64,000 nt of DNA from the NCBI RefSeq assembly GCF_963921235.1, contig NC_086097.1, positions 37,016,001-37,080,000 of the forward strand. Reading direction: 5' to 3'. This stretch comes from Mobula hypostoma (Eukaryota). Under the pieces are notes generated by a model. That model was given only the letters and a program-made list of their open reading frames with translations, ran no database searches and was not told the DNA's origin. A program made the translations under genes and the position numbers. Positions within the stretch are counted from its first letter, which is position 1; each line of letters opens with the position of its first letter. Of this stretch, positions 34,981 to 41,500 are shown piece by piece.

Positions 34981-36681
34981 TTTAGTTTTTACAGCAAAGA
35001 GTCATCTGTTTATCTTATTTTAGTATTTTCTGAGAAGATAGCAAAAGTGAAACCAGAATGCTGAATGGTAAAATTGCCATTATTCCCGTGTTGCTAACAA
35101 AATATTTTGCAAAAATAATGTACTTAGCCTGCTATGCTTATACTTAGAAAAAAGTGGCAAAATTAATTCTCTTTGCATTCTAATTTCATTCTTGTATACA
35201 AATATGAAGAAAATGTTTTTTCAGCTCAGTAATATTTAGTTCCATATTTATATTGGAGTAAACATCACTGGATCTGATTTGTATGCTACTATTTAAGTAA
35301 ATTATGCTGTAAAGTTCTGGCTGGTCTCCAGAAGGGTGTATGCAGTTATATTTCCTCGGAGAAAAACACCTTGGAGCAACAGCACAGAAATACACCAGGG
35401 AGTAGATTGAAAAGAACATAATTATTAAAGTACTTCCAGAAATTAAAATGCTGCAGAATTGTAGATTATAACATTTTAATTTAATAGTTAAAAATGAAAA
35501 AAAGGTTTGTAACTTAAAACAGAATTCAACAGTCTTTCCTAGGCACATTGAGTCATGCTTTCAACATTATTGGCATCAATCAAGTTTTATCATCAATCGG
35601 CTATCAATGAATTTTCAACCTGATTATCCTATTCTTATTAGCAAAGGAGAAGTATGTTGGATATACAAGGCCAGGGATCAGATCATCCTCACTTTACAGT
35701 TGCAATATTGAAAATCACTCATTATTTTGGTGCAAACTCTACATTGAAAAATAGCACATTGGCATATTAACAACCAACTTATCAGAAACTACCAAACAGA
35801 AAATAATTCCACAGATAAGCTCCTGAATAGGATTGGAAGAAATTATCCCAATTTAAAAAATCAAGTTTAATTTAACTGAAACTGCCAGTTCATTTACCTG
35901 TCACTTGTGTACTTGTTGATTCCCAAACAAGAAAAACATTTTAAAGTTCTCCTGCTGTTTTTAGATCACCTCTAAAAGTTAGTGGGAAGATGAAGGATTG
36001 GGAAGTTTTTAAAAACCTACAGAGAGCAACTTAAAAAAAAATCATTAGAAGGGAAAACATGAAATACAAAAGCAAGCTAGCAAATAATATCAAAGAAGAT
36101 AGTTAAAGTTTTTTCAAGAATATTAAAAATAAAAGAGAGATGAGAGTGGATATAGGACCACAAGAAAATGAGGCAGGAGAAATAATAACGAGGGACAAGG
36201 AGATGGCTGACGAATTAAGTAAGTATTTTGCATCAGTCTTCACTGTGGAAGACATTAGCAGTATGCCTGATGTTGCAGTGTGTGAAGTAAGTGAAGTGGG
36301 TGCAGTTACTGTTACAAGAGAGAAGATGGTCAAAAAGCTGAAAGACCTAAAGCTACTTAAGTCACCCGGATCAGAAGATCTGCACCCTAGGGTTCTGAAA
36401 GAGGTAGCATTAAAGACTGTGGTGGCATTAGAAATGGTCTTTCAAAAATCACTGGACTCTGGCACAGTGCCAGATGTCTAGAAAATTGCAAATGTTACTC
36501 CACTCTTTAAGAAATGAGGAAGGCAGCAGAAAGGAAATTACAGACCAGTTAGCCTGACCTCAGTGGTTGGGAAGATGTTGGAGTCAGTTAACACAAAATA
36601 ATCTGCAGATGCTGGGGTCAAAGCAACACTCACAACACGCTAGAGGAACTCAGCAGGCCAGGCAGCATCCGTGGAAAAGAT

Positions 36682-36719
36682 CGGTCAACGTTTCGGGCCG
36701 GAAACCTTCGTCAGGACTG
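36682..36719 (-). ncRNA. Minimal type I hammerhead ribozyme motif in Penelope 3' terminal repeat
   Basis: CAGUC-CUGACGA-AGGUUUCCGGCCC-GAAA-CGUU-GACCG: stem I, catalytic core and palindromic AACGUU in place of helix III. Confidence 0.75.
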
Positions 36720-38490
36720 TAAGGGGAAGGGGCAGAGGCCCTATAAAGAAGGTGGGGGGAGGGTGGGAAGGAGAAGGCTGGTAGGTTCCAGGTAAAGAAC
36801 CAGTAAGGGGAAAGATAAAGAGGTGGGGGAAGGGAGGCAGGGAAGTGATAGGCAGGAAAGGTGAAGAAAGAATAGGGGAAAACACAATGGGTAGTAGAAG
36901 GAGGCAGGACCAAGAGGGAGGAGGTAGGCAGCTGGGGGAGGGGGCAGAGTGACATAGGGATAGGGGAAGGGAGGGGGAGGGAATTACCGGAAGTTGGAGA
37001 ATTCTATGTTCATATCAAGGGGCTGGAGACTACCTAGACGGTATATGAGGTGTTGCTCCTCCAACCTGAGTTTAGCCTCATCATGGCAGTAGAGGAGGCC
37101 ATGTATGGACATATCTGAATGGGAGTGGGAACTAGAGTTGAAGTGGGTGGCTACCGGGAGATCCTGTCTGTTTTGGCGGACGGAGCGGAGGTGCTCGACG
37201 AAGCGGTCCCCCAATCTGCATTGGGTTTCACTGCTGTAGAGGAGGCCACACCGGGAGCACCGGATGCAATGGATGACCCCAACAGACTCACAAGTGAAGT
37301 GTTGCCTCACTTGGAAGTACTGTTTGGGGCCCTGAATGGTGGCAAGAGAGGAAGTGTAGGGACAGGTGTAGCACTTGCGCTTACAGGGATAAGTGCCAGG
37401 TGGGAGATCCGTGGGGAGGGACATGTGGACCAGGGAGTCGTGGAGGGACCGATCCCTGCGGAAGGCGGAGAGGGGTGGAGAGGGAAAGATATGCTTAGTG
37501 GTGGGGTCCTGTTGAAGGTGGCAGAAGTTGTGGAGGATAATGTGCTGGATCCGGAGGCTGGTGGGGTGGTAGGTGAGGACAAGGGGAACTCTGTTCCTGT
37601 TGTGGTGGCGGGAGGATGGGGTGAGAGCCAAAGTGCGGGAAATGGAGGAGATGTCACCATTGATGACAGCAGAAAGGAAACCACGATCCTTAAAGAAGGA
37701 GGACATTTGAGATGTCCTGGAATGGAAAACCTCATCCTTGGAGCAGACGGAGGAACTGGGAATAGGGAATGGCATTTTTGCATGTAGCGGGGTGGGAAGA
37801 GGTATAGTTGAGGTAGTTATGAGAGTCAGTGGGCTTGTAGAAGATGTCAGTGGACAGTCTGTCTCCAGAGATGGAGACCGAGAGATCGAGAAGGGGGAGA
37901 GAAGTGTCCGAGATAGACCAGGTGAATTTGAGGGCTGGGTGGAAGTTAGAAGTAAAGTCGATGAAATTGATGCGCTCAGCATGGGTGCAGGAAGCAGCAC
38001 CAATGTAGTCGTCAATGTACCGAAGGAAAAGTTGGGGAGCAGTACCAGAATAGGTTTGGAGCACCGACTGTTCCACATAACCAACGAAGAGGCAGGCATA
38101 GCTAGGGCCCATGCGAGTTCCCATAGCTACACCCTTGGTCTGAAGAAAGTGGGAAGAGCCAAAAGAGAAGTTATTGAGTGCAAGAACCAGTTCCGCCAAC
38201 CGGAGGGTAGTGGTGGTGGGGAACTGGTGAGGTCTATTATCCAGAAAGTAGCGGAGGGCTTTGAGGCCTTCTTCATGGGGAATGGAGGTGTATAGGGATT
38301 GGCCATCCATAGTGAAAATGAAGCAGTTGGGACCGGGGAACTGTAAGTTATTGAAGAGGTGGAGGGCATGGGATGTATCCCAGATGTAGGTGGGGAGAGA
38401 CTGAACTATGGGTGACAAAATGGAGTCCAGGTAGGCAGATACAAGTTCGGTGGGACAGGAGCAGGCAGAAACTATGGGTCAGCCGGGACA

Positions 38491-38579
38491 AGCAACACAC
38501 ATCAAAGTTGCTGGTGAACGCAGCAGGCCAAGCAGCATCTATAGGAAGAGGCGCAGTCGACGTTTCAGGCCGAGACCCT
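38491..38579 (-). mobile_element. 89-bp Penelope terminal-repeat fragment nested in the Penelope RT
   Basis: 13-bp TSD GTCAGCCGGGACA at 38478-38490 and 38580-38592; sequence matches the other pLTR copies. Confidence 0.88.
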
Positions 38580-41500
38580 GTCAGCCGGGACAGTCAGGCT
38601 TGTGGATCTTGGGGAGGAGGTAAAACCGAGCGGTACGGGGTGTGGGAATTATGAGTTTAGTGGCTGAGGATGGAAGGTCTCCAGAGTTGATAAGGGCAGT
38701 GATGGTACGGGAGACAATGGTTTGATGTTTTTTGGTGGGGTCCTGTTCCAGGGGTAAGTAAGAGGAGGTGTCAGAGAGCTGCCGTTTGGCCTCAGTGAGG
38801 TAGTGGTCCATCCGCCAGACTACTACAGCACCACCTTTGTCAGCGGGTTTGATGGTGAGGTTGGGATTAGTGCGGAGAGTGGAGGGCAGTGCGTTCAGAG
38901 GAAATTTAGAAACTGAATGGCCTGAAGGTGGGGCTTTCGAAATACCATGATCTGAAGTTGGGATCTTTGATACCAAACGATTTGAGGGTGATGTTTTTGT
39001 CAACAACCAGCCTGAGGCACCAACATCATTATTAGACTCTAATATATTTACAACTGCCTGATCAGCTTCAGGCTGTAATGCACCTGAGGGTGTAGGGAGC
39101 ACCATCTGATCTTCAGAGATGCCTGCCACAGTTTGGTTGGAACAGAAGAGAGGAGTGGTAAAGTTGAGACGGTTGATGTCTCGGCGACAGTTGGAGATAA
39201 AAAGATCGAGTGCAGGTAGAAGGCCCGGGTGGGGTGTCCAGGAGGAGGAGAAGGGTTGAAGACAGGAGAAGGGGTCATCAGTAGGGGGACGGGAATTTCT
39301 GCCAATGAAGTAGGCTCGGAGACGTAGGCGACGGAAGAAGAGTTCAGTGTCATGGCGGGCACGGAACTCACTGAGGTGTAGACGGAGGGGGACAAAGGTG
39401 AGGCCCTTGCTCAGCACAGAACGTTCTGCCTCAGAGAGGGGAAGGTCAGAGGGGATTGTGAAGACACAGCAAGGGTTGGGGCTGGGGTCGGAGGAGGGTG
39501 AAGAGTGGGAGGTCTCAGGAGGGAGAGTGGGGTTGGGATGTTCAGGGAGAGCGGGGTTAGGGGAGGATGAGGGATCAGAGGAATGGAGGGGTGATGAGGG
39601 ATAGAGGGAAGGTTGGGAGTCGCGGGGAGGAAAGAGGGCAATGGGAGAATAAGACGGGTGGTAGGACCCAGCGGCAGTAAGAGCGGTCCCAGTCCGGAGA
39701 GAGTCGGGACCTCGGTCCGAGCTGGATCCGGAGCTGGGGGTGGCGGAACCTGTAGCCTGCAGGGCCCCAGAGCTGAGGTCGGAGACGGAGGCAAGTGAGT
39801 CTATGGCCCGCCGGGGGCTGGTGCCCATGTCCAGGAGGCCGTAGTTCCAGTCGGGGTCAGAGTCAGAGGCGGATGGGTCTTCAGCCTGCCGAAGGGCTGA
39901 GAAGTCGAGGTCTGAGGGGTCGGGGTCCGGGCTGGAGCCGGTTGTCATCGTGGGAGTCAGTTGTTAAGGATGAGGTGATGGAGTACTTGGTGACACAGGA
40001 CAAGATAGTACAAGGTCAACATGGTTTCCTTCAGGGAAAATCCTGCCTGACGAACCTGTTGGAATTCTTTGAGGAGTTTACATGTAGGATAGGTTAAGGG
40101 GATGCAGTGGATGTTATATATTTGGACTTTCAGAAGGCCTTTGACAAGGTGCCACACATGAGGTAGCTTACCAAGTTAAGAGCCCATGGTGTTACAGGAA
40201 AGTTACTAACATGGTTATAGCATTGGCTGATAGGTAGGAGGCAGTGAGTGGGAATAAAAGGATCTTTTTCTGGTTGGCTGCCGGTGACTAGTGGTGTTCC
40301 TCAGGGATTGGTGTTGGGACCACTTCCTTTTATGCTATATTTCAATGATTTAGATGATGGAATAGATGGCTTTGTTGCCAGGTTTGCAGATGATATGAAG
40401 ATTGGTGGAGGGACAGGTAGTGTTTTGGAAACAGGTAGGATACAGAAGGGCTTATACAGATTAGGAGAATGGGCAAGAAAGTGGCAAATGAAATACAATG
40501 TTGGAAAATGTATGGTCCTGCACTTTGGTGATAGAAATAAATGTGTGGACTATTTTCTAAATGGGGAGAAAATTCAGGAATCTGAGATGTAGAGGGACTT
40601 GGGGGTCTTTGTGAAGAACACCCTGAAGGTTAACTTATAGGTTGAGTCAGTGGTGAGGAAGGCAAATGCCATGTTAGCATTCATTTCAAGAGGCCTAGAA
40701 TACAAGAGCAGGGATGTGATGCTGAGGCTTTATAAGGCACTGGTGAGGCAGCACCTTGAGTATTGTGAACAGTTTTGGGCTCCTCATCTTAGAAAAGATG
40801 TGCTGGCATTGGAGAGAGTTCAGAGAAGGTTCACAAGTGTGATTCCAGGAATGAAAAGGTTATCATACGAGGAATGTTTGATGGCTCTGGGTCTGTATTT
40901 GCTGGAATTCAGAAGAATGAGGAGAGGGGGATCTCACTGAAACCTTTCAAATATTGAAAGGCTGAAACAGAATAGATGTGGAATTGATGAGAGAGTCTAG
41001 GACAAGAGGGCACTGCCTCAGGATAGAGCGGCGCCCTTTCAAAAAAAAAGAGATGTGGAGAAATTTCTTTAGCCGAAGAGTGGTGAATCTGTGGAACTTG
41101 TTGCCACGTGCAGCTGTGGAGACCAGATTGCTGGGTGTACTTAAGGCAGAGATTGATAGGTTCTTGATTGGACATGGCATCAAAGGTTACAGGGAGAAAG
41201 CGGGAAATCGGGTTGAGAAGGGGAGAAAGGATCAGCCATGATTGAATTACGGAGCAGACTCGATGGGCTAAATGGCCTAATTCTGCTCCTGTGTCTTATG
41301 CCCTCTTCAGCTCCTGCCTTTGTTCCTCTAAAAAGCTGCTGCTTTAACGGAGCATTATCACTAGCCCCATTTGAGGCACAGTACAAAATTTCATTTAATA
41401 AAGTTACTCGGGATTTTATATGTTAAAAGCTCTTTTAAAATAGAAACCATTGTTTATACCTAAAGGCTTAACTTCCATTCTAGCACATCTTTTAAAAAAT

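Follow-up and report, generated by a model that had tools for sequence, protein, structure and literature searches.

The locus studied here raises the question of how the reading frame of a retroelement can stay open across a piece of foreign sequence, and whether selection had any part in it. The locus lies in a 64,000-nt stretch of the Mobula hypostoma genome (RefSeq assembly GCF_963921235.1, contig NC_086097.1, positions 37,016,001 to 37,080,000 of the forward strand), hereafter the window, in which positions are counted from the first base. On its minus strand the window carries a copy of a Penelope-like element (PLE), whose open reading frame (ORF) takes in 233 nt that do not belong to the element. 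The original prediction, made from the sequence alone, regarded these 233 nt as captured host coding sequence and suggested that a cargo-bearing lineage of Neptune elements had remained translatable. The first of these suggestions was right, and we traced the insert to a single donor in what appears, from its domains, to be the giant exon of a SPEN-like gene, copied in the same sense and the same frame. The second was not: the insertion is a single-locus event, private to the window copy, and the window copy is an ordinary decaying pseudogene. As to how the fragment came to be there, the reading we hold with moderate confidence is a one-time templated patch at a chromosome break, in an ordinary Neptune-type PLE copy nested in a long interspersed nuclear element (LINE).

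To delimit the insert, a 601-nt query from the window was compared with the whole 3.48-Gb assembly. Family copies match bases 5-166 and 400-601 of the query, separated by ~6 nt, and bases 166-401 match just one other genomic place, C75:25012923-25013158. Twenty-six of the 28 fetched family loci continue through the insert site with 6 nt there, and the other two break off at the site. The family sequence reads ...CCAACC TCACTC CCTCTGAA... at this point; the window copy is without TCACTC and has 233 nt added. The insert is therefore foreign to the element over exactly the positions first assigned to it (Table 1), as this part matches the donor only and the family copies that reach across the site are without it. 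Its GC content is lower than that of the surroundings, as had been noted (43.3%, compared with 55.4% for the remainder of the element and 41.9% for the donor exon piece). A 30-nt periodic repeat had also been described within it. At the DNA level this was not recovered: Tandem Repeats Finder, run on positions 38500-39500, reported no array even at a score of 30, and the four decapeptides of the insert, judged by eye, resemble each other at the peptide level only.

When the insert alone was searched against the genome, two candidates were obtained, and both were scored: the window itself and C75:25012923-25013158. Together with the bases shared at its edges, the insert is identical to the latter at 229 of 236 positions (7 differences). 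The donor place sits in a frame that is open over C75:25007802-25016489 (~8.7 kb). A 1078-residue piece around it matches MINT_MID (PF20809, 4.9e-53) and MINT_RID (PF20810, 2.1e-54), and a SPOC match (PF07744, 55.6 bits) is found on the plus strand at C75:25025916-25026395, 9.4 kb downstream of the donor frame, so that MINT_MID, MINT_RID and a C-terminal SPOC follow one another on one strand in the domain order of SPEN / MINT. Since an 8.7-kb open exon carries both MINT domains and has SPOC downstream, we assign the donor, on these domain matches, to the giant exon of a SPEN-like (Msx2-interacting protein) gene. The insert peptide alone gave a weak MINT_MID match (E 0.0031, 17.7 bits), under the cut-off of 27. 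The donor is intact and is located on another chromosome-scale contig (C75) than the recipient (C1). The direction of transfer, from host to element, is clear, because the segment is part of a long conserved host exon and, among the very many element copies, occurs in one. In a small sequencing run, X9, guessed to be RNA, a 10,942-nt contig has the alleles and the flanks of the donor; it shows at most that the donor region is transcribed. A separate feature of the SPEN-like giant exon is an array with a 33-nt period (4.5 copies, 77% matches; positions 1931-2078 of the fetched donor locus L002, on C75), which starts 195 nt downstream of the captured part and encodes ...SVISKAP... units.

The two junctions carry few marks. 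There is no target-site duplication around the insert, in agreement with the original prediction; 6 element bases (TCACTC) are gone instead. Nor is there a poly(A) tract or signal at the insert, which ends in ...AAATTTCC with no A run. The microhomology amounts to 1 nt at the 5′ junction and 2 nt at the 3′ junction. No extended homology was found at the junction flanks, the score of the true 5′ flank being equalled by 29% of the donor 20-mers.

The minus-strand frame 38581..39963 is open for 460 aa from stop to stop and for 455 aa from the first Met, and it does run across the insert with ~78 foreign residues, as predicted. In the window copy the peptide reads CSN, then 78 foreign residues (Q..KF), P, LNALPST and LRTNPNLTIKPADKGG, where the family copy L035 reads CSN-LTPSERTALHS-LRTNPNLTIKPADKGG; the conserved element peptide LTPSERTALHS is destroyed or out of frame in the window copy. 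The frame of the insert is open because coding sequence landed in sense and is read as it is in SPEN; of the six frames of the insert this one alone has no stop (the others have 3 to 11). The chance of such a landing is 1 in 6, and no selection is needed for the open frame. The 3′ joint leaves a +2 shift, and without a further change the next stop, located by eye, would come ~25 codons past the joint. The loss of one CT from a CTCTCT run, ~25 nt downstream of the 3′ joint, restores the element frame after eight shifted codons (LNALPSTL), for a net length change of +233 -6 -2 = +225 nt, or 75 codons. That SERTALHS had been shifted out of frame and that the frame had been restored by this loss was correctly read from the sequence of the window: CTCTCT is intact in all 28 fetched family loci, and exact matches to the undeleted 35-mer were found at 125 genomic places, those to the CT-deleted 33-mer at one, the window itself. 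If the CT loss was part of the same event, as a slip in fill-in or in synthesis of complementary DNA (cDNA), the right phase would be expected in ~1 of 3 cases.

A lineage of translatable chimeras would require that the insert and the 2-nt deletion be found together in several copies of the family. They do occur together, but at the window locus only, and since both are confined to this same single locus there is no lineage for selection to act on. The prediction was to be given up if the segment proved unique to this locus and derived from non-coding DNA; it is unique to the locus, but its source is coding DNA. The fate of the copy points in the same direction. Private changes were called by alignment with 8 other copies (3427 columns for the 3365-nt window copy) and comprise two insertions (the SPEN piece, which came with the loss of 6 nt, and one of 102 nt), the 2-nt loss, and deletions of 3, 11 and 9 nt. 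A private AGA>TGA change closes the 455-aa frame. The same change is present at 38479-38481, that is, in both copies of the 13-nt duplication that flanks the inserted repeat, and the stop is therefore older than the 102-nt insertion. The 89-nt unit within this insertion belongs to a young, high-copy short repeat (at least 529 candidate genomic places, of which 40 were scored, with 94-100% identity); elsewhere it often occurs as two units head to head. Owing to the 11-nt deletion the endonuclease part is no longer in frame with the sequence before it, and the ORFs 37732-38478 and 36984-38126 accordingly differ in frame. The single locus of both changes, the private stop and the frameshift thus leave a cargo-bearing Neptune lineage kept translatable without support.

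Contigs from several sequencing runs bear on the reality and the age of the insert. In run X1, which may be the sample behind the assembly, a 327-nt contig covers 38850-39176 and spans both junctions with 0 differences. The insert does not consist of mis-assembled donor reads, because 7 of 236 bases differ from the donor. In run X5 (organism B, from another study) one unbranched contig over 38905-39044 has the window's alleles, and two contigs cover 39015-39113, one with the window's alleles at 39066 and 39083 and the other (39015-39111) with the SPEN alleles at both positions. Among the X5 contigs listed none clearly bridges an element-insert junction, and the contig showing 38904 A>C has an end 31 nt off on the insert side. 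Because an X5 contig carries insert-specific alleles, an orthologous insert is likely to be present in organism B as well, and to be older than a species split. Run X10 (organism C) has a SPEN-type contig that is equal to the window at 38965 and 38986 and equal to the source species' SPEN at 38948, 39009, 39066 and 39083; in that run the insert region is covered by this contig only, which says nothing on the absence of the insert there.

From these comparisons the changes at 39066 and 39083, both nonsynonymous, can be firmly placed in the insert lineage, and those at 38965 and 38986, both synonymous, in the source species' SPEN. Firm polarisation is limited to these four positions; insert and donor also differ at 38926 and at the CpG sites 38948 and 39009. 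We withdrew a reading of the latter two as CpG decay in the insert lineage, since the single unbranched X5 contig over 38905-39044 gives no direction. The divergence of the insert on its own lineage thus comes to 2 to 5 changes in 233 nt (0.9-2.1%). The window copy has 52 private substitutions where all others agree, or 81 with a 75% majority, in 3034 columns (1.7-2.7%), which is within the range of the other copies (8 compared). As for expression of the chimera, no RNA data set was listed with it, and among the contigs listed for the run guessed to be RNA none bridges a junction.

Under the reading that we favour, a break would have occurred in an already integrated element copy, with 6 nt lost at one point, and end joining would have filled it with a 233-nt copy of the SPEN-like giant exon from the other chromosome-scale contig. 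The patch may have been reverse-transcribed SPEN mRNA, making it an insertion of the class-2 "templated sequence insertion" type. A 2-nt slip in the CTCTCT run would have cancelled the +2 shift, in the same repair or as a later chance event; nothing would have been selected and no cargo-bearing lineage would have arisen. Both the repair of a break in an integrated copy and the use of RNA or cDNA as template are what we infer from the marks of the junctions and from the donor. The strongest argument for a break is that the two element ends are 6 nt apart, a closeness that follows directly if they are the sides of a single break. Class-2 templated sequence insertions, in the part of the literature drawn on here (PMC5110952), have a distant transcribed source, no duplication, no poly(A), a microdeletion and microhomology, and a patch of reverse-transcribed RNA has been proposed for them. 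The insert fits this class: its distant, transcribed donor was left intact, the 6-nt deletion and the 1- and 2-nt microhomologies are marks of end joining, and duplication, poly(A) and extended homology are all absent.

Several points weigh against a patch. The sense orientation, which an RNA-to-RNA template jump demands, would be expected for a patch in only 1 of 2 cases. The divergence of the insert overlaps that of the copy, which fits a capture during retrotransposition too. End joining does not typically leave a 2-nt loss as far as ~25 nt from the junction, and as an independent event such a loss would be unlikely, roughly 3-5% by our arithmetic (the copy has 4 small indels of its own over ~3 kb, the stretch that tolerates one is ~75 nt, bounded by the stop located by eye, and the phase must be right), a figure tempered by selection bias, as the site was picked for study since its frame is open. 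Three of 68 sampled copies break within ~10 nt of the site where ~1 would be expected, which hints weakly that the reverse transcriptase (RT) stalls there. Finally, an RNA and a DNA template are indistinguishable, because the fragment lies within one exon and has no splice junction.

The chief alternative is a template jump in the retrotransposition that made the copy, an explanation to which we give a real but clearly lesser chance. The element RNA being copied from its 3′ end, the RT would have left its own RNA at CC, copied 233 nt of SPEN mRNA and returned 6 nt on; the insert would be as old as the copy, and a slip while the same cDNA was being made would have caused the CT loss. The sense orientation is what an mRNA template demands, the parts meet without filler and with 1-2 nt of microhomology, the donor region lies within the long contig of the run guessed to be RNA, and the ages of insert and copy overlap. 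In addition, 5′ truncations and inverted parts are common in the family, L010, L015 and L060 being within ~10 nt of the site, and template jumps have been proposed for in-frame N-rich inserts of rotifer Penelope ORFs in the part of PMC3846280 considered here. What tells most against such a jump is its return: on a 3-kb template, a free jump guided by only 1 nt of homology would land 6 nt from where the RT had left with a chance of the order of 1% by our estimate. Moreover, 0 of 8 other full-length copies show any insertion long enough to be seen in the alignment. The possibility that the insert site is a break hot spot of the family was considered and not found convincing. The three breaks within ~10 nt are two among the 28 loci of the family search and one (L060) among a further 40 loci, taken in listed order from the 125 exact-pattern places and not already in the set; with ~15 of 40 copies breaking somewhere in the 250 nt upstream, ~1 in 68 would be expected per 10-nt interval, and the excess of three over one is a weak signal.

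The fuller version of this account, in which the SPEN piece was taken up in retrotransposition itself, by a jump to host mRNA and back together with the 2-nt slip, so that an in-frame chimeric ORF arose in one step, we regard as tentative and a little less probable still. If true, it would be a vertebrate example, caught in the act, of a proposed route by which foreign coding segments enter PLE ORFs, and the chimera may be old enough for two species to share.

Copying of the SPEN gene itself, by a DNA-templated insertion through template switching (fork stalling and template switching/microhomology-mediated break-induced replication, FoSTeS/MMBIR) or by synthesis-dependent annealing, we consider unlikely. 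In its favour are the microhomology seen at each junction, the small deletion and the donor left intact, and it requires no RNA stage, in keeping with a fragment without a splice junction. However, the microhomology is just 1-2 nt with no extended homology in the flanks, the donor is on another contig (C75 and not C1), and patch insertions are enriched for transcribed sequences in the available account (PMC5110952), with which a source that is exonic and transcribed agrees.

A cargo-bearing lineage or a host-exapted chimeric protein, in which selection for translatability kept the insert and the CT loss, is largely refuted and very improbable. It would explain why the net change is exactly 75 codons with the DKG motif back in frame, why a compensating deletion of low independent probability (the 3-5% above) is present, and why X5 contigs carry the window alleles at 39066 and 39083, by which the insert may be old and shared. 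Against this, the insert and the CT loss are each found at one locus in the whole assembly, a private nonsense change, older than the repeat insertion, closes the frame, and the RT/endonuclease part is frameshifted by the 11-nt deletion. The conserved LTPSERTALHS is lost or out of frame, and the two firm changes of the insert lineage are nonsynonymous where the two firm changes of the donor lineage are synonymous. The open frame of ~457 aa is itself unremarkable, the longest frames in the 8 comparison copies being 334 to 973 aa.

An assembly artefact, with SPEN reads mis-joined into a repeat, might be suspected for a site within a family of such high copy number (3854 first-look candidates) and is next to negligible given the 7 differences from the donor, the X1 contig, possibly of the same sample, that spans both junctions without a difference, and the insert-specific alleles shared by contigs of another study's run.

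The window insert is a further case of a known kind of event, the templated insertion or capture of a gene fragment in a transposon copy. LINE-1 RT makes chimeric retrocopies by template switching, for example U6-L1, in which sense host RNA is joined to the element with little or no homology. Those chimeras are joined end to end and need one jump; the window event would need two, with the return 6 nt from the departure. Pack-MULEs, Helitrons and retroviral transduction also place host exon sequence inside a mobile element, where it is propagated with the element; the window insert is a host exon piece too, but has no second copy. Closer parallels are the class-2 templated sequence insertions and templated sequence insertion polymorphisms (TSI/TSIP) found at repaired double-strand breaks (Onozawa and Aplan; PMC5110952), which resemble the window insert in the short distant copy, the intact donor and the marks at the junctions. 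In the account cited they are known from human cells and as human polymorphisms, whereas the window case would be an old event in a non-human vertebrate, its recipient being a retrotransposon ORF, its patch in frame by chance and its RNA origin inferred.

Penelope elements of Adineta vaga offer another comparison, with in-frame N-rich inserts and host-DNA capture for which template jumps were proposed (PMC3846280). In both cases foreign coding-capable sequence is found in a PLE ORF, the frame is open and there is a transcribed donor elsewhere. The Adineta vaga inserts, as described in the portion of that study used here, measure 460-554 aa or 1.5 kb, are of low complexity, are carried by whole families and recur at set positions (between RT and endonuclease or between RT core and thumb). 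The window insert, in contrast, is confined to one locus, lies upstream of the DKG motif and encodes 78 aa that can be recognised as part of a host gene.

Taken alone, this private insertion leaves existing knowledge unchanged. Its value is that the case is fully readable, from the donor and both junctions to the frame and the later decay, and that a stop-free insert with a compensating frameshift, an apparently designed feature, arose without selection in one dead copy, which calls for caution in scans for chimeric frames. More sense mRNA pieces in the family, if found, would bear on template jumping in vivo by Penelope-like RTs.

The recipient copy shows several PLE features (Table 1). It measures 3365 nt including two foreign inserts, and ~3034 nt of it can be aligned to family copies. 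IKPADKGG is present in the window copy and in the family copy L035, and the N-terminal DKG motif is diagnostic for PLEs according to the section of PMC8557442 consulted. PLEs are expected to have a single ORF with an RT domain; the RVT_1 match (E 1.2e-06, 28.8 bits) falls just below the cut-off of 29.6, and the RT frame is broken in the window copy. For the endonuclease frame Pfam gave no match even at E 10. Endonuclease-bearing PLEs have a C-terminal GIY-YIG domain with a CCHH motif (two Cys between GIY and YIG), and a CX2-5CxxC Zn-finger-like linker upstream of it is given for Neptune and Nematis and not for Penelope/Poseidon in the part of the classification cited (PMC8557442). The linker CKRKCYTC would accordingly fit Neptune or Nematis and not Penelope/Poseidon, and it is on this motif that the "Neptune-type" label is based. 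Another expected trait is a hammerhead ribozyme motif in the terminal repeats; hammerheads have been linked to PLEs (PMC4209133, in the part cited). An Rfam search at E<=1 over 36000-40500 detected no hammerhead, although a divergent motif could escape it, and its sole match was a chance-level long non-coding RNA (E 0.23).

Table 1. Positions in the window of the element copy, the SPEN-like insert and the private changes of the copy.
Feature	Position	Strand	Remarks
Penelope-like element copy, whole	36590..39954	-	Approximate ends from BLAST of the window against 28, then 8 family loci
Target-site duplication AGTCAGTT, 8 nt	39955..39962 and 36582-36589		Flanks the element copy
N-terminal part of the element ORF	39135..39948	-	Runs from Met at 39948 up to the insert
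KGLTFVP motif of the element ORF	39388-39408	-	
5′ junction, 1-nt microhomology	39135 (C)	-	Common to donor and element
Fragment of host SPEN-like giant exon, 233 nt	38902..39134	-	Sense orientation, SPEN's own frame
3′ junction, 2-nt microhomology (CC)	38900..38901	-	From comparison of the window with L002 (donor) and the family
Private 2-nt (CT) loss in CTCTCT run	38874..38879	-	Window reads CTCT
DKG motif	38833..38841 (ADKGG at 38830-38844)	-	In frame again downstream of the insert
Stop of the 455-aa frame, private AGA>TGA	38581..38583	-	8/8 other copies read AGA
Later 102-nt insertion	38491..38592		89-nt repeat unit + 13-nt target-site duplication
13-nt target-site duplication GTCAGCCGGGACA	38478-38490 and 38580-38592		
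Reverse-transcriptase core	38002..38343	-	Weak Pfam RVT_1 match, residues 46-159 of frame 37732-38478
Private in-frame deletions	3 nt near 38202; 9 nt near 37655	-	
Private 11-nt deletion, frameshifting	~37744..37752 (near 37748)	-	Alignment with 8 copies
Endonuclease region	37188..37385	-	Linker motif + GIY-YIG-like core, the latter spotted by eye
CX3CxxC linker CKRKCYTC	37362-37385	-	
GIY-YIG-like core, two Cys between halves	VIHCIRCSRCGLLYSSET 37224-37277; RLGDRFVEHL 37188-37217	-	

The copy is nested in plus-strand LINE-like RT sequence, with frames at 36107-36481 and from 39777 onward. The LINE-like RT sequence surrounding it was located at 36107-36481 and 39966-41000 of the window (plus strand).

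The family is abundant, the 601-nt query having given 3854 first-look candidates in the genome, of which 40 were scored. Its truncation points are scattered, and in L010, L013, L015, L051, L056 and L060, which are 5′-truncated, the element is joined directly to a 3′ part of itself in inverted orientation. The family and the window copy agree in this with PLEs, for which 5′ truncation of variable extent, partial copies that are inverted or in tandem, and a short target-site duplication are characteristic. In 4 of 40 sampled copies truncation points bunch at positions 772-777 of L035, a tighter cluster than that at the insert site and a possible RT stalling point. The near full-length loci L035-L042 are ~90-96% identical in pairwise comparison, with longest open frames of 334 to 973 aa; the family was perhaps still active in the fairly recent past. 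One family copy, L011, has another internal insertion of ~658 nt at ~1950-2606, equivalent to window positions 38353-38356.

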